From an uncultured Candidatus Binatia bacterium (GTDB lineage: Bacteria; Desulfobacterota; Binatia; UBA9968; JAJDTQ01), in NCBI GenBank assembly GCA_965215605.1, contig OZ244070.1, positions 96,001-160,000 on the forward strand: a stretch of 64,000 bases of DNA, written 5' to 3'. The notes beneath the pieces are model-generated. The model was given only the letters and a program-made list of their open reading frames with translations. It was not told the DNA's origin and did not search any database. Positions 58,309 to 64,000 of the stretch are shown piece after piece. Positions within the stretch are counted from its first letter, which is position 1. Every line of letters begins with the position of its first letter. A program made the translations under genes and the position numbers.

Positions 58309-58968
58309 CCGTCACCTCCTCGATGATGCGTGGGGTGTGAGAACCACACGCCGAAGGGCGTGTCAATCGCACTTCCTGACCGCTCAAACCATCGGGCGAT
58401 GAAAGCCGTTGTGCCACCGGTAGTTAGCCCGAGCGGCGCATGAGCGGCGGCGCCCGCCGCGCACTTGCGGAGACAGTTCTCGAACCGCCGCGCGGCTTCC
58501 AGGCGTGCACTATAGGAAGCACGAGGTAACAAATCAATCGGCGAGGACACGCGTATGGGCCGGCACACTACAGGCCTGCACTGTCGGCGACGGTGCGTGC
58601 GGCCAGCGCTGGATTCAGGCTCTGCAAGACGCTGCATCGGAAGGTCCAGGCGGCGCGGCTGCTGTGCGTCAAGCAACGGACCGCCGCCGTGGTCAGCTAC
58701 CGGGAGGTAAACAAGAGCGCGTCGATGCAGAAGCTCGGGGCGCACCAGCGCTCCGTTATTTCCAACGTCAGTCGGTCTGGTGCCTATATGCAATCCGAGC
58801 GGCATGTGTCCGACGGCACAATCCCGGCCGGGACGGGATGCTTCGATGCAACTGCCTTCAGCGAGACTCCTTGATCCACGGCCTCGGGCCATTGCATATT
58901 CTTCCAACACACATTGCCCGTCGATGCGGTCGGGAACCGGATTCATCTGGAACCAGAGGAGAGACGCG

Positions 58969-59999
58969 ATGATTCGACGATTGATGATGCCGCTTGTGCG
59001 GGCGGTAAAGACCTTGCTCACAGCAGGCGCGGACGTGAACGCCAAGGACAAAGATGGGAGTACTCCCCTTCACGAGGCGGCAGCCGAGGGCGAAGCGGGA
59101 GCGGTGAAGGCCTTGCTCACTGCTGGCGCGGACGTGAATGCCAAATACAAAGATGGGTGGACTCCCCTTCACTGGGCGGCACTCAAGGGCCAAGCGGGAG
59201 CAGTAGAGGCCTTGCTCGCTGCCGGCGCGGACGTGAATGCCAAATACAAAGATGGGTGGACTCCCCTTCACGGGGCGGCACTCAAGGGCCAAGCGGGAGC
59301 GGTGAAGGCCTTGCTCACTGCTGGCGCGGACGTGAATGCCAAATACAAAGATGGGTGGACTCCCCTTCACTGGGCGGCAGCCAAGGGCGAAGCGGGAGCG
59401 GTGAAGGCCTTGCTCACTGCTGGCACGGACCTGAACGCCAAAGACAAAAATGGACGGACTCCCCTTCACGCGGCGGCACTCAAGGGCCAAGCGGGAGCAG
59501 TAGAGGCCTTGCTCGCTGCTGGCGCGGACGTGAATGCCAAATACAAAAATGGATGGACTCCCCTTCACTGGGCGGCAGCCAAGGGCGAAGCAGGAGCGGT
59601 GAAGGCCTTGCTCACTGCTGGCACGGACCTGAACGCCAAAGACAAAATTGGATGGACTCCCCTTCACGCGGCGGCACTCAAGGGCCAAGCGGGAGCAGTA
59701 GAGGCCTTGCTCGCTGCCGGCGCGGACCTGAACGCCAAAAGCAAAAATGGGTTGACTCCCCTTCACGCGGCGGCACTCGAGGGCCAAGCGGGAGCAGTAG
59801 AGGCCTTGCTCGCTGCTGGTGCGGACCTGAACGCCAAAGACGAAAATGGGGCGACTCCCCTTCACGCGGCGGCACTCGAGGGCCAAGCGGGAACGGTGCA
59901 GGGCAACCTCGGACGTAGCATCGTGATCGACACGACAACGCCGGAGGCTTCCGAGTATCTGGAATTCCTGCGCAACCTGGATGACTCCGTGATCCAAGT
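58969..59999 (+). pseudogene. Ankyrin-repeat gene, 5' part, interrupted by IS21 (reads through into IS to 60153)
   Basis: SD AGGAGAG, MIRRLMMPLVR, nine 33-aa ankyrin repeats, then non-ankyrin segment cut at 59999. Confidence 0.85.
59002..59892 (+). repeat. Nine tandem near-identical 99-bp ankyrin-coding repeats
   Basis: Units start at 59002, 59101, 59200, 59299, 59398, 59497, 59596, 59695, 59794; ACTCCCCTTCAC invariant. Confidence 0.97.
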
Positions 60000-60181
60000 T
60001 GTCAATGGCAACCGAAAACTGCACACATTTGGCAATCGAAAACTGCACACTTTCGAGAAGAGCGTCCGTGCAGAAGTGACGCTCTGCGGTTGGTTCGGTT
60101 CATGGGTCATGGTCTGGACGGAGGGAGCGGAGCGAGCGGAGTCCAGGCCATGACGGGTTGCAGATCGGCAGGACATGGCGC

Positions 60182-60979
60182 TCACAGGACGCCTCCCTGG
60201 CGAGGCTGCTCGTCGGCTGACCGCATGAGGTTGCGGTGTTCGCGCATCCTGTAGCTGTTGCCGCGGATGTTGACGATGTGGCAGTGGTGGAGGAGCCGGT
60301 CGATGAGGGCAGCAGCCATGACCTCGTCGCCGAGGACGCTGCCCCAGTCCTCGAAGCCCTTGTTGGAGGTGAGCACGGTGGAGGCGCGTTCGTGCCTGGC
60401 GTTGATGAGCTGGAAGAAGAGCACGGCGCCGTCCTGGGTAACCGGCAGGTAGCCGATCTCGTCCACCAAGAGCAAGGCGGGATAGGTGAGGACCCGCAGC
60501 CGGCGGGAGAGCTCGCCTGCGGCCTTGGCCTCCAGCAGCGACTCGATCAGTCCGGCCAGGGTTCCGTAGTAGACGCGGCGGCCGGATTCGGCGGCGGCGA
60601 CGGCTAGGCTGATAGCCAGATGAGTCTTGCCGACCCCGGGCGGCCCGAGAAAAATGACGTTTTCGCGGCGATCCAGGAAGCCGAGTTCGTGGAGGCTCTC
60701 GATCTGCTCGCGCTTGATGCTGGGCTGGAAGGCGAAGTCGAACTGGGCCAGGGTCTTCACGGCCGGCAGCCGCGACGAGCGCATGGCGGTCTGGAGGCGG
60801 CGGTTGTTGCGCAACCCGATCTGGGCGTCCAACAACTGCTCGATAGCCTCGCTGGCGGTGGCCGCCCCGCTGTCGGCCTGGGCCAGGACGTCGTCGACGG
60901 CCTCGAGCGCGCCCGGCATCTTCAGATCCGCCAGCATCGCCCGCAGCCGGTCGCGCCGGTTGCCTGCCTCGGCCCTCAT
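60182..60979 (-). CDS. istB: IS21 helper ATPase
   Basis: FDFAFQP, GPPGVGKTHLA, VDEIGY, LTSN, DRLLHH, GNSYR; ATGA overlap with istA. Confidence 0.96.
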   Translation of the reverse strand: MRAEAGNRRDRLRAMLADLKMPGALEAVDDVLAQADSGAATASEAIEQLLDAQIGLRNNRRLQTAMRSSRLPAVKTLAQFDFAFQPSIKREQIESLHELGFLDRRENVIFLGPPGVGKTHLAISLAVAAAESGRRVYYGTLAGLIESLLEAKAAGELSRRLRVLTYPALLLVDEIGYLPVTQDGAVLFFQLINARHERASTVLTSNKGFEDWGSVLGDEVMAAALIDRLLHHCHIVNIRGNSYRMREHRNLMRSADEQPRQGGVL

Positions 60980-61998
60980 GACACCGCCTCCGCGTAGACC
61001 CTGAGCGAGCGCCGCTCGACGTCTACGGTGACGGGCAGGGGGCGCCGGGCTTGCTGTGGAAGCCTGTGCATACCAAGGCGCCGATACGGGCAACTCGCCA
61101 ACGGCAGCAGCGCCTGCTGCTCGTCGCGCTCGAAGCGGTCCACCGGGCGCTCCCTGGTGGTGCCGTGCCAGCGCCGGTTCGCGGTTCCCTCAAGCCACAA
61201 GCGCGCCTGCTCGTTCAGGTCCTCGTCGTTCAGGAACTCCCGGCCGTAGAAGAAGTTGTTGCGGATGTAGCGGATCGGCCGCTCCACCTTGCCCTTGGTT
61301 TGGGCTCGGTACGGCCGGCATGCCCGAGGCCGGAACCCCCAGTGCGCGGCGAACCGCAAGAAGTCCGCGTTCAACACCAACTCGCCCCCGCCCGCGCGGC
61401 CGTCCGACAGCACCACCGTCCGCATCTGGTCGAACAAGAGCTCCTGCGGCACCCCGCCGAAGCACTCGAAGGCGCTCTCCAGCCCTTCGATCAGCACTGC
61501 CATCGTCTGCCGCCGGTAAAACCGCAGCCACAACAGCCGGGAGTGGCTCAGAACCATCACCAAAGCATGCCGCCGCCCCCAGGGAAGCGTGAACGTCGCA
61601 AAGTCCACCTGCCCCTGCCGTCCCGCCGGCGTCTCGAACCGCACCACCGCCTCCGCCGGCTCCCTTGGCCGCACCGCCCGAACGTACTCCCTCACACGGA
61701 CGTACCCGCCCGTGTAGCCTGCCCCTCGTACCTCGTCGTACAGCCGCTTCGCCGACAACCGCGGATACTCCTCCAGTCGCGCCTCGATGATCCCCTTGTA
61801 CGGATCCAGCTTGTGACACACCGGCGGCCTCGCCCTGTATCGCGTCCCGCCTCCCGACAGATCCCGGTCCAACTGTCCTGTCTCGATCCACTCGTGGATC
61901 GTCCGGCGACTCACCCCGAACCGCCGCGACAGCTCCGTCTTCGTTACACCCCGTTCCAGATAGTGCCTAAGCAGCATCCTCGTCTCCCATCCGTGCAT
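60976..61998 (-). CDS. istA: IS21 transposase
   Basis: N-terminal HTH, RFETPAGRQGQVDF, FGGVP, FDQM, PYRAQTKGKVER. Confidence 0.96.
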   Translation of the reverse strand: MHGWETRMLLRHYLERGVTKTELSRRFGVSRRTIHEWIETGQLDRDLSGGGTRYRARPPVCHKLDPYKGIIEARLEEYPRLSAKRLYDEVRGAGYTGGYVRVREYVRAVRPREPAEAVVRFETPAGRQGQVDFATFTLPWGRRHALVMVLSHSRLLWLRFYRRQTMAVLIEGLESAFECFGGVPQELLFDQMRTVVLSDGRAGGGELVLNADFLRFAAHWGFRPRACRPYRAQTKGKVERPIRYIRNNFFYGREFLNDEDLNEQARLWLEGTANRRWHGTTRERPVDRFERDEQQALLPLASCPYRRLGMHRLPQQARRPLPVTVDVERRSLRVYAEAVS

Positions 61999-62125
61999 CT
62001 GTGCTCCGCTCCGTTCCTGTTGGTCTTGCCAACAGCCTGGACCCGAGCACTCACGCCAGCAATCAATGTGTGCAGTTTTCGATTGCCATAAATGGGAAAT
62101 TTACAGTTGCCACCAACATCCAAGT

Positions 62126-62306
62126 CAACGGACGTACCTATTTGGTGGGCTTCTACGTACCGTACGTGTTGAAGCGAGGGCCGATTCACGAATGGATTGA
62201 AGCGGAAACCGGACTAGTATTCCGTGTCGGAGACTCCTACTACGTCTGTTGCCGAGTGACGCGGGAACGGCCCGCGCCGGTTCTTCCGCTTCCCAACCCG
62301 TCCTAG
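62126..62306 (+). pseudogene. 3' continuation of the IS-interrupted ORF (non-ankyrin C-terminal segment)
   Basis: Removing IS + one DR restores the frame ...DDSVIQ-V-NGRTYLVGFY...PNPS*. Confidence 0.8.
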
Positions 62307-62314
62307 ACGCGCCG

Positions 62315-62581
62315 ACGGTGGAGGTCTTGCTCGCTGCTGGCGCGGACGTGAACGCCAAAAACAATGCTGGGGCGACTCCCCTTCACTGGGCGGCACTCAA
62401 GGGCGAAGCCGGAACGGTGAAGGTCTTGCTCGCTGCTGGCGCGACGGTCAACGAGAGAACCGGAGATAGAATAACTCCTCTGGAAGCAGCCCGAGTCGGG
62501 ATGGAAAAGACAGAGGGAAACGTCAAACATTTTCAGGAGGTGGTGCGGACACTGGAAGCACACGGGGCACGCGAAGGATGA
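62315..62581 (+). pseudogene. Orphaned original 3' end of ankyrin gene (repeat 10 + capping repeat)
   Basis: TVEVLLAAGADVNAKNNAGATPLHWAALKGEAG...VVRTLEAHGAREG*; resumes in the exact repeat register lost at 59898. Confidence 0.85.
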
Positions 62582-62871
62582 GGCCGATGAATGGACAGGG
62601 AACGCTCGTGGAAGCGAGCGGCGGACTCCTCCCGCATCCTTGCGGAGCCTGTCCGTGCCACGATGCTCTCGTCTCCCGGGATAGAGGAGGTCATCAAGCC
62701 CGCAAGGGCTTGCCAGGAACGGCTAACCCAGCCGAATTGAGGGAATGTGCAACCATAACCGATCAATCATCTGCGGCTCAGAAGGATGCTTCTATTCCGG
62801 GCTGTTTCCCATTTCTCCTCCCTTGGTTTGCTGGTTTTCGACAGGCAGCGGCGAAATGATTCAGGCAAACG

Positions 62872-64000
62872 CTATACCCTTTTGGCATCAGGAACACGGG
62901 GTCGGGGCACGGTGGCGGGTTTGAGGGAAGGAATCGGGCACATTGCCCCGAGGTGCGTAGAAGGCGACGTCTGGTCGAGGCCGATGGAGCCGGCAATGAG
63001 TCTCCCCACCCTCTCTGCCGCCTCGGCCATATGGCGGTCGGCGAGATGGGCGTAGCCCGCGGTGGTGCGGTGCCGCCGGTGCCCGAGCAACCTGCCGACC
63101 AGGGGAAGATTCTCGCCGGACATCACGGCTTGGCTGGCGATGGTGTGCCGAAGGTCATGAAGGCGAAGCCTTCCGAGCTTCGCGGCCGCGCACGCCGCGC
63201 GCGGACGGTCCCGCAAGGGATGATAGCCCTTCCCGTGCGCGTAGGTCGGAAACAGCAGCCCATCCGGATCGCGAAGACCCCGCAGCGTCTCGATATGCGC
63301 CCGCGCGGACCGGTCTTGGAGTCGCCAAGGTTGAGCGCGTCCCGGCCGACATCGCGCCAGGGCAGATTGAGCACCTCGCTTCGGCGGCATCCGGTGAGCG
63401 CCAGCAGCCGGATCGCGGCGACGGCGACGGCCTCGGGCCATCGGGGCTCGCCGGCGTCGAGCGCGCGACCGAGGCGCGCCAGTTCGTCCGCGTCGAGAAA
63501 CCGGGCGATGTTGTTCCGCGGGTTCTTCCTGATGCCGACACAAGGGTTGCTGTCGCGTTGGCGCAAACCCCACTCTTCGGCGCGGAACATCATCGAGCGC
63601 AGTATCTCGAAGGCGCGGTTGGCCGCACCGGGCCGGTCCTTGCTGGCTGCGTCGAACCACGCGGCCACATCCTCGGGACCGATGCGGTCGAGCGGTATCC
63701 TGCCGAAGGCAGGTAGGATGCGGGACTTGATATAGTTGCGCACGGTCTTGCGTCCTGAGGGCTTCCAGTGCGGACCGCAGCGACGCAGGTACTCGTCCGA
63801 GAACTGCGCAAGGTCAAGGTCTCTTTCTCCCTGCGGTTGTCGCCCGCGCGAATGCGCCCAAGCATGTCACGGGTGCGACGGCAGGCCTCGGCGATCTCGA
63901 TCTCGGCATGCCGAGCGATGACGATGCGGCGGCTCCGTCCCTCGATGCGCGCCTGCACGATCCAGACCTTCCGGCCTGATGGATGGATGCGAAGCCCGGA
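62872..64000 (-). pseudogene. Frameshifted tyrosine recombinase/integrase (arm-binding type); 5' end outside window
   Basis: GLRIHPSGRKVW, LLALTGCRRSE, LHDLRHT, LLGH..TTAGYAH spread over at least three frames. Confidence 0.88.

Follow-up and report, generated by a model that had tools for sequence, protein, structure and literature searches.

Polymorphic toxin, Rhs and CDI loci are known for a new C-terminal piece that follows in frame, with the old 3' end directly downstream. The ankyrin locus analysed here shares both properties. It lies near the end of a 64,000-bp stretch of DNA (the window) from an uncultured, sponge-associated Candidatus Binatia bacterium. Unlike the known loci, it has no homology-guided cassette and no immunity gene. 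Its new piece is a standalone orphan gene minus the first ~7 codons, a 6-bp duplication flanks that piece, and no alternative tips were seen in the paralogues or in the congener loci read. None of the three properties that mark polymorphic toxins (a recurrent C-terminal domain family, an immunity gene, alternative tips) was found.

Rickettsia palindromic elements are in-frame MITE-like elements. Elements of this kind resemble the insert in their small size (290 bp here), a target-site duplication and in-frame read-through in the host gene. The insert differs in that it brings in a stop codon and that its coding content can be recognised as part of a normal small gene. Among the features of transposons with terminal inverted repeats and of MITEs, the target-site duplication is present, but terminal inverted repeats and additional copies are absent. 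Integron cassettes are comparable as promoterless gene-sized units of ~300 bp that code for orphan proteins, and a 296-bp circle that recombined at a short core would lead to precisely the observed product. However, no attC-like hairpin was seen, and the stop is followed by just 8 bp of insert. The core is ACGGTG and not GTTRRRY, and the target is a coding repeat and not attI or attC. Neither attC, IntI nor insertion at GTTRRRY was found.

Illegitimate recombination and filler DNA events also bring in heterologous DNA once only, with short homologies at the junctions and none of the features of mobile elements, but at this locus the whole target remains and 6 bp of it are duplicated. In naturally transformable bacteria, illegitimate insertions are usually shorter or accompanied by target deletions. 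The nested insertion sequence (IS) at this locus is nothing unusual for the IS21 family; it accounts for the second event only and not for the 290-bp piece. Finally, the ankyrin eukaryotic-like proteins of sponge symbionts are a parallel, since the ankyrin family is multi-copy and the sequence of the host genome was found in sponge metagenomes. In contrast to them, this copy is disrupted and has no hydrophobic leader. One report describes single eukaryotic-like protein genes that enable bacterial escape from sponge phagocytosis (PMC13747020). The literature searched otherwise gave only general work on symbiont ankyrins and IS.

Two nested insertions in an ankyrin gene

The features of the locus are collected in Table 1. 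The 5' part of the ankyrin gene belongs to Pfam Ank/Ank_2, with tandem 33-aa repeats matching the profiles (PF00023, E 7.9e-78, 10 stretches). Its repeats keep a 99-bp register, visible as a GGAGCxGTx-type motif at 59098 + 99n through 59791. The next motif is due at 59890, and downstream the register is kept across the insert (62411 - 99 = 62312). As the preliminary description stated, the array stops after ACGGTG (59893-59898, the end of the 5' part) and restarts in register after a second ACGGTG (62315-62320); the positions and the register both bear this out. ACGGTG occurs 5 times within 58901-62600. Of the three further copies, two belong to the IS (60375 and 61025) and the third, at 62414, follows one repeat after the restart.

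Table 1. Features of the interrupted ankyrin locus (positions in the window)
Feature	Position	Strand	Content
Ankyrin gene, 5' part	58969..59898	+	310 codons, ATG 58969, ~9 repeats of 33 aa
Insert, left 101 bp	59899..59999	+	First 33 codons + 2 nt of the small-gene copy
IS21-family insertion sequence, 2119 bp	60000..62118	-	istA 60976-61998, istB 60182-60982
Insert, right 189 bp	62126..62314	+	Last 60 codons, stop TAG 62304-62306, then 8 bp
Displaced ankyrin 3' end	62315..62581	+	Right ACGGTG, 1.5 repeats, usual family C-terminal tail
Frameshifted tyrosine-recombinase (phage integrase family) gene	62872..64000	-	Runs past window end

The displaced 3' end is intact, with 88 codons and the natural stop, and retains a Pfam Ank match (E 1.9e-11). 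Its tail also terminates all six paralogues and the homologues in 7 congeners. The end that was initially called an orphan is simply the ordinary C-terminus of the ankyrin family. The hydrophobic leader is absent from the interrupted copy and from its closest paralogue, and present in the other 5 paralogues.

An uninterrupted version of the site was found in a congener (G021, locus L008), which reads ...GCGGGA-ACGGTG-GAGGCC... with a single ACGGTG. The alignment of this locus to the downstream part of the window (93.9%) starts exactly at 62315. Because the congener has one ACGGTG, the interrupted locus represents an insertion that duplicated 6 bp of its target. The displaced 3' end is 93.9% identical to the congener and the 5' part 92.2%. 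The 3' end is thus no more diverged than the 5' part, and the first insertion is not ancient. All paralogues (6/6) are uninterrupted and carry no alternative inserts. The same is true of the 7 congener loci that were read among 9, the other 2 being not resolved.

When the IS is subtracted along with one of the two copies of its flanking duplication, the foreign DNA amounts to 101 + 189 = 290 bp, or 296 bp when counted with one ACGGTG. It reads as 93 codons, the stop, 8 bp and then ACGGTG, and without the IS the chimera has 310 + 93 = 403 aa. This reproduces the arithmetic of the preliminary description. The left part is in frame with the ankyrin gene and aligns to the N-terminal third of a family of 94-100-aa proteins. 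The right part matches the profile of the same family (E 1.8e-30) and an intact paralogue at C1:2413217-2413393 (tblastn, 41.7% over 60 aa, E 5e-11). The insert lacks ~7 N-terminal codons of the small family, and its boundaries fall inside that gene.

Apart from the target-site duplication, the insert has none of the marks of a transposon that were looked for. It is single-copy, as each half matches only itself in its own genome (blastn), and its 20-nt ends have 1 and 2 genome-wide matches at up to 3 mismatches. Terminal inverted repeats are absent, as had been claimed: one end scored 6 against the reverse complement of the other, versus 7.7 +/- 1.6 for shuffles. No dyad-symmetric arms were seen in the sequence around ACGGTG. 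No partner or immunity-like gene follows the new tip, since ankyrin sequence returns 8 bp past the stop. A near-identical donor copy was found nowhere in the data searched, including the present assembly. The two junctions have 13 of 18 positions in common around ACGGTG, a mild hint of donor-target pairing.

The second insertion is recent. The IS is flanked by a 7-bp duplication, TCCAAGT (59993-59999 and 62119-62125), and is one of 4 copies in the genome that are 100% identical over 2118 bp; the remaining 3 have duplications of 5 bp. The element has imperfect terminal inverted repeats, which start with TG and end with CA, and repeated subterminal sites. Its gene pair is that of the IS21 family: IstA contains PF00665 (rve, E 6e-13) and HTH_23 with an N-terminal HTH, and IstB matches PF01695 (IstB_IS21, E 1.4e-79). 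The gene pair, the TG/CA ends, a duplication within 4-8 bp and the several copies place the element in this family. The ends of the insert show no likeness to IS21 ends beyond chance, the sole shared stretch being the 7-mer GGCAACC with 982 occurrences in the genome. The idea that the IS21 transposase used surrogate ends of the whole 2.4-kb block was rejected, as the alignment scores were within those of shuffles. After 394 codons, the frame of ankyrin gene and insert now runs into a stop inside the IS, which makes the locus a decaying pseudogene and not a working swap system.

The joins were compared with independent contigs made by another assembler from runs X19 and X20, which may be the source sample of the assembly. 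These bridge 59780-60158 and 59863-60029, and X19 also bridges the IS to the insert (62094-62298), all with 0 differences. None of the contigs listed bridges the right junction (62314/62315). In sponge metagenome runs X1 and X2, 62200-62303 is uncovered. Both runs contain joints from 59775 to 62328 or 62374 with other letters between the two sides. These come from other ankyrin genes and are therefore uninformative on empty alleles.

The small gene family and the neighbouring recombinases

The search for a donor family suggested at the outset led to a standalone orphan gene of 94-100 aa, of which the inserted 93 codons are a copy. An intact standalone paralogue of 95 aa is present in the same genome (C1:2413109-2413396). 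At this locus a 1332-bp IS3-family element stops 60 bp short of the gene, and the gene was rejected as its passenger. Searched with a profile, 1.84 billion representatives yielded 5 matches at E <= 1e-3. Two are credible, at 94 aa (E 6.6e-24) and 100 aa (E 2.4e-16), and both are standalone. The remaining matches, to 3 long repeat proteins, consist of 4-12 weak stretches each and were rejected as family members. Among these representatives the small family was never seen as a C-terminal domain or fused to a larger protein.

The family is extremely rare. Public data contain 4 distinct standalone sequences in addition to the inserted copy. Within the genus, 1 of 28 genomes possesses the family, namely the one studied here, and the family was not found in the 27 congeners. 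In a sample of the phylum it was found in 1 of 401 genomes and not in the other 400. No candidate emerged when the 62-aa right piece was compared by word index with 5.8 billion proteins. Back-translated scans confirmed no match, either with the homologues P0001 and P0002 (encoded on contigs of 51.9 kb, 52.2 kb and 16.2 kb) in genome_contigs and viral_contigs or with the right piece and P0001 in metagenome_contigs. A tblastn search of phages and plasmids with the paralogue gave no match. The 93 aa found nothing in Pfam, PHROGs, NCBIfam, PADLOC and PDB sequences beyond a YciI-like match, which was discarded (E 0.095). The ESM Atlas gave no usable match, and an AlphaFold2 model from a 5-row alignment (pLDDT 53.1) was too poor for a fold search.

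The tyrosine-recombinase gene beyond the displaced 3' end retains pieces of PF00589 in two different frames. It belongs to a repeated module of ankyrin and integrase genes, present at at least 6 loci. Homologous integrase blocks adjoin other ankyrin loci, with an intact copy at C1:864538-865659. Recombinase-like matches number more than 20 in the genome, and one is found beside every ankyrin locus.

Possible routes to the first insertion

The locus is probably the result of nested hits on one ankyrin gene: a one-off illegitimate or off-target insertion followed by a recent IS, with a pseudogene left behind. The first event placed a 290-bp foreign piece into the ninth or tenth repeat of an ankyrin gene of a multi-copy family. 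The piece is close to the whole coding sequence of the small gene, from codon ~8 through the stop and 8 bp beyond it, with 0 target bases lost and 6 bp (ACGGTG) duplicated. That it is read through is a matter of chance (1 in 3 for the frame, given the orientation). The predicted product was a protein of 403 aa, 310 aa of ankyrin with 93 new residues, while the capping tail and the 1.5 repeats before it would have been left untranslated downstream. An IS21-family element then entered the foreign piece, recently.

As for the mechanism of the first event, the tentative first choice is a single enzyme-made exchange at ACGGTG. This could have been a staggered 6-bp cut that was then filled in, or a single crossover in which the donor, as a small circle or in tandem form, recombined with the target across the 6-bp core. 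Tyrosine recombinases use overlaps of this length, and the genome has a recombinase-like match next to each ankyrin locus. A role of the adjacent tyrosine recombinase is possible. An identical 6-bp core is present, inverted arms were not seen, and the integrase itself is frameshifted. For a random accident it is a mild coincidence that the fragment almost equals one whole small gene and has the orientation and frame needed, which leaves room for a mechanism acting on gene-sized units. A perfect 6-bp duplication without transposon hallmarks is explained by no mechanism tested here.

The first event could also have arisen without a dedicated enzyme, through replication- or repair-based illegitimate recombination (microhomology template switching, or double illegitimate recombination during the uptake of DNA), although this is rather unlikely. 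A nascent or incoming single strand would have paired with the ankyrin template over a short and imperfect homology around ACGGTG, and a 290-nt stretch from a transient donor, for instance a plasmid, a phage or DNA acquired by transformation, would have been copied or integrated, leaving the 6-bp repeat. The 13/18 junction likeness and the single-copy insert devoid of terminal repeats suit this route, and a donor missing from the assembly fits transient DNA. No Ku gene was found in the genome; Ku-dependent end joining was rejected as a route, classical end joining being unlikely without it, and homology-guided routes are what is left. However, a perfect 6-bp duplication without target loss needs either a donor that carried ACGGTG, or most of it, at two points separated by 290 bp, or a strand that rejoined the target exactly 6 nt behind where it had left. 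In addition, the insert ends at its 3' side in …CCG, which does not pair with the …GGA that precedes ACGGTG in the target, and re-priming would be poor. A retrocopy, in which a 5'-incomplete cDNA of the small-gene mRNA was placed at a staggered nick in the manner of a processed pseudogene, would account for a gene-sized piece that starts ~7 codons late and ends 8 bp past the stop. It would also fit a flanking duplication without terminal repeats. It is nevertheless very improbable: the 3' tail signature is absent, and the genome (assembly 97% complete) has a single RVT_1 match, of 31.7 bits, which lies at the N-terminus of an ORF for an MMPL-type transporter and looks spurious. No bacterial precedent for such a retrocopy is known.

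The preliminary description had favoured a cassette-like replacement of the C-terminus, reminiscent of polymorphic effector loci and possibly brought about by microhomology or the adjacent recombinase. One part of it stands, in that a foreign coding piece does replace the end in frame and the original 3' end is intact directly downstream. The tyrosine recombinase gene 290 bp further on, the ankyrin and integrase module and the 6-bp core would also suit a programmed exchange, as 6 bp is an overlap length used by tyrosine recombinases (6-8 bp). The cassette-like character and the effector likeness did not hold up. The donor family was seen only as standalone small proteins and was not found in the 27 congeners, the gene is cut at the insert boundaries and truncated at its 5' end, no partner or immunity gene precedes the returning ankyrin sequence, and the insert is unique in the genome. 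Alternative alleles, expected from such a system, were absent from the 6 paralogues and the 7 of 9 congener loci that were read, and G021 has an empty site. The best integron integrase match (TIGR02249) reached 85.4 bits against a cut-off of 265, so none was accepted, and the chimera itself has been knocked out by the IS. The insert is a one-off without alternative alleles, an outcome that the preliminary description had itself set against its proposal, and the cassette idea therefore fails; a programmed replacement is considered improbable. A related proposal, that the 296-bp unit is a promoterless gene-sized mobile cassette whose circle was captured at a 6-bp core inside an ankyrin repeat by one of the ankyrin-linked tyrosine recombinases of the genome, is a long shot. 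Most improbable is an assembly artefact, a chimeric join within repetitive ankyrin and IS sequence. The sequence here is very rich in repeats (99-bp units and an IS present 4 times in the genome) and its right junction lacks a bridge among the independent contigs listed, but the X19 and X20 contigs cross from ankyrin through insert to IS, and X19 from IS back to insert. A misjoin, moreover, would not yield an in-register 6-bp duplication around a unique, coding 290-bp piece with homologues.

If the circular cassette were real, new ends would be grafted onto host-interaction proteins in an integron-like way outside any integron, and the proteins so altered would be those carried on integrase and ankyrin modules. 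If the insertion is a one-off, as it appears to be, it is of little importance in itself. It would then be a clean, datable case of a symbiont's expanded ankyrin family decaying under a heavy load of mobile DNA, and would illustrate that a repeat protein can acquire a foreign peptide in a single step, through an accidental insertion. The repeated module of ankyrin and integrase genes may be the better lead on how symbiosis genes spread.

An ankyrin-repeat gene interrupted twice

The 5' part of the gene consists of about nine near-identical 99-bp repeats (Pfam Ank, E 7.9e-78), with a GGAGCxGTx-type motif at 59098 + 99n as far as 59791. At 59890, where the next motif is expected, the sequence reads GGA-ACGGTG and the ankyrin pattern is lost beyond it. 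The pattern is back at 62315 as ACGGTG-GAGGTC and the motif at 62411 lies exactly 99 bp past 62312, so the register is kept. ACGGTG stands on both sides of the interruption (59893-59898 and 62315-62320) and zero ankyrin bases were lost. Once the IS21-family element and one copy of its duplication are removed, the foreign insert measures 101 + 189 = 290 bp (296 bp counting one ACGGTG) and gives, in frame with the ankyrin repeats, 93 codons, a TAG at 62304-62306 and 8 further bases. A fusion of 310 + 93 = 403 aa results, as the preliminary description had reported together with the break and the in-register resumption at the second ACGGTG; all of this was confirmed. The present-day frame stops within the element at 60153 (394 aa).

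Six paralogous ankyrin genes in the genome are all uninterrupted and all end in the tail found at 62315-62581. This segment, earlier described as an orphan, is therefore the normal C-terminus. The tail was detected in 17 of the 28 genomes of the genus (own genome counted). Nine congener loci were fetched, and in seven the array continues into the tail (with a caveat that L009 and L016 were not resolved by the pattern). No alternative alleles were seen in the six paralogues or these seven loci. The closest relative of the interrupted locus, L008 in congener G021, is 92.2% identical to the 5' part and 93.9% identical to the 3' part, where the alignment starts exactly at 62315, and it has one ACGGTG (GCGGGA-ACGGTG-GAGGCC). 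L008 is the empty site, and the first event was one insertion that duplicated 6 bp of the target. It is probably not ancient, because the displaced 3' end has stayed intact and has diverged from the congener no further than the 5' part.

The second event was the IS21 hit. The element has imperfect terminal repeats starting with TG and finishing with CA, and is bordered by a 7-bp duplication (TCCAAGT); duplications at the remaining three genome copies are 5 bp. All four copies are identical (100% over 2118 bp), so this hit was recent. These copies and those of an IS3-family element (1332 bp, at least 11 near-full copies, 91-99% identity) show a heavy insertion-sequence load.

Sequence from the window turned up in metagenome runs from sponges, and 68-74% of the words sampled from it are found in four 2025 runs of a single organism. 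Contigs assembled independently from two of these runs (X19 and X20, which may be the source sample) cross three junctions with 0 differences. The ankyrin/insert and insert/IS junctions are spanned by X19 (59780-60158) and X20 (59863-60029, reaching 30 nt into the element, one short of the bridging criterion of 31 nt), and the IS/insert junction by X19 at 62094-62298. Spanning contigs thus bear out three junctions, and 62314/62315 is crossed by none of the contigs listed. A misjoin is very unlikely because the duplication lies in register around unique coding DNA.

Features of the interrupted locus and related loci (bare numbers, window positions; C1, contig coordinates in the same genome; L002 and L025, fetched loci)
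Feature	Coordinates	Strand	Details
Ankyrin-repeat gene start	ATG 58969	+	purine-rich ribosome-binding stretch upstream
Leaderless start, this gene and closest paralogue	58969-59050; C1:3647144-3647452		
IS21-family element, 2119 bp	60000-62118	minus (istA, istB)	rve + HTH (istA); PF01695, E 1.4e-79 (istB)
Broken tyrosine recombinase adjoining the ankyrin gene	62872-64000	minus	Phage_integrase catalytic part and N-terminal SAM-like + central parts in two different frames
Module at interrupted locus	58327-64000, on to about 65103 (C1:154327-161103)		
Further module loci	C1:864400-868340, 772850-774350, 1902370-1910320, 3250280-3251760, 3646700-3648250		
Intact module integrase	C1:864538-865659		373 aa
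Consecutive tyrosine-recombinase matches	C1:859799-862471 (outside window)		at least 3 separate open frames
95-aa paralogue of insert	C1:2413109-2413396 (L002 5110-5397)		
IS3-family element	C1:2411718-2413049 and at least 10 other sites		
MMPL/RND-type transporter ORF	C1:2721563-2724232 (L025 1064-3733)		889 aa; borderline N-terminal RVT_1 match, 29-32 bits

Identity of the inserted codons

The 93-codon product had zero matches in Pfam, PHROGs, NCBIfam, PADLOC and PDB. An intact standalone 95-aa paralogue is encoded in the same genome, 60 bp away from an IS3-family element and ahead of an AAA_14/DUF4143 ATPase gene (41.7% identity to the insert's right piece over 60 aa, E 5e-11). A profile search of 1.84 billion representative proteins gave 5 matches at E <= 1e-3. 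Two are real, standalone and unnamed proteins of 94 aa (E 6.6e-24) and 100 aa (E 2.4e-16) from metagenome assemblies (cluster sizes 2 and 1); the other three, long repeat proteins that matched weakly in 4-12 stretches each, were dismissed. Only 4 distinct sequences of this small gene family were found in public protein collections. They share the motifs GR-Y, HEW and DYY-CC-V-RERP, and an AlphaFold2 model consists mainly of beta strands, at low confidence. When aligned with these sequences, the insert corresponds to the family from about position 8 through the end; by this measure it is a small-gene copy that lacks some 7 codons at the N terminus, and it is no domain known in larger proteins.

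The family was detected in the own genome only, both among the 28 genus genomes and among 401 genomes of the phylum sample, and searches of phage records, plasmid records and viral contigs did not find it. A donor family for the 93 aa (standalone, 94-100 aa) exists, and the donor itself was found nowhere in these collections or in the genome, the resident paralogue being excluded because its identity is just 42%.

Origin of the first insertion

A transposon with terminal inverted repeats, or a MITE, was rejected: the insert is single-copy and its inverted-end score is 6, against 7.7 +/- 1.6 for shuffled sequences, which agrees with the earlier remark that such repeats are lacking. Movement by the IS21 transposase acting on surrogate ends was also rejected. 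So was an integron cassette: the insert lacks an attC, ACGGTG differs from the integron core, and the best integron integrase candidate in the genome reached 85 bits, below the cut-off of 265. A retrocopy is unsupported, as the sole RVT_1 match falls in the transporter ORF and is probably a false positive. The C-terminal swap proposed in the preliminary description was not upheld: unlike polymorphic-effector loci, the insert has no partner gene and no alternative tips, and recurrence is missing.

The favoured explanation, a tentative one, is an enzyme-made event, either a filled-in staggered cut or one crossover, over a 6-bp core, between the target and a donor in small circular or tandem form. 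The exchange would have taken place at ACGGTG, and an overlap of 6 bp is what tyrosine recombinases use. The genome holds 22 tyrosine-recombinase matches and each ankyrin locus has a companion recombinase within its module, which fits such an event; arguing the other way, the adjacent copy carries a frameshift and binding-arm symmetry around ACGGTG was not seen. Microhomology-guided template switching or double illegitimate recombination, which 13 of 18 like positions around ACGGTG at the two junctions also fit, is a less likely alternative. No Ku gene (classical end joining) was found in the genome. The fragment nearly matches the extent of a complete small gene, a slightly odd coincidence that leaves a mechanism acting on gene units alive at low probability.

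Ankyrin modules and the fate of the gene

At 6 or more loci, some tandem or partly deleted, an ankyrin gene is paired with a convergent tyrosine-integrase gene in a recurring module of about 4 kb, and one module integrase is intact. Small integrative elements may carry the ankyrin genes along as cargo. About 2 kb from one module lie consecutive recombinase matches, a layout reminiscent of 'recombinase in trio' elements. The hydrophobic leader present in the other 5 paralogues is missing from the interrupted gene and from the paralogue closest to it; a short stretch substitutes for it, fused straight to the first repeat. The two products may not be exported.

Older work links ankyrin proteins of sponge symbionts to avoiding phagocytosis. 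One paper reports that single genes for eukaryotic-like proteins enable bacteria to escape being phagocytosed by sponges (PMC13747020). Gain and loss within the ankyrin family are biologically relevant. Here one of the seven ankyrin paralogues has become a pseudogene through a one-off nested insertion, an ordinary instance of decay apart from one mechanistic detail that lacks an explanation.
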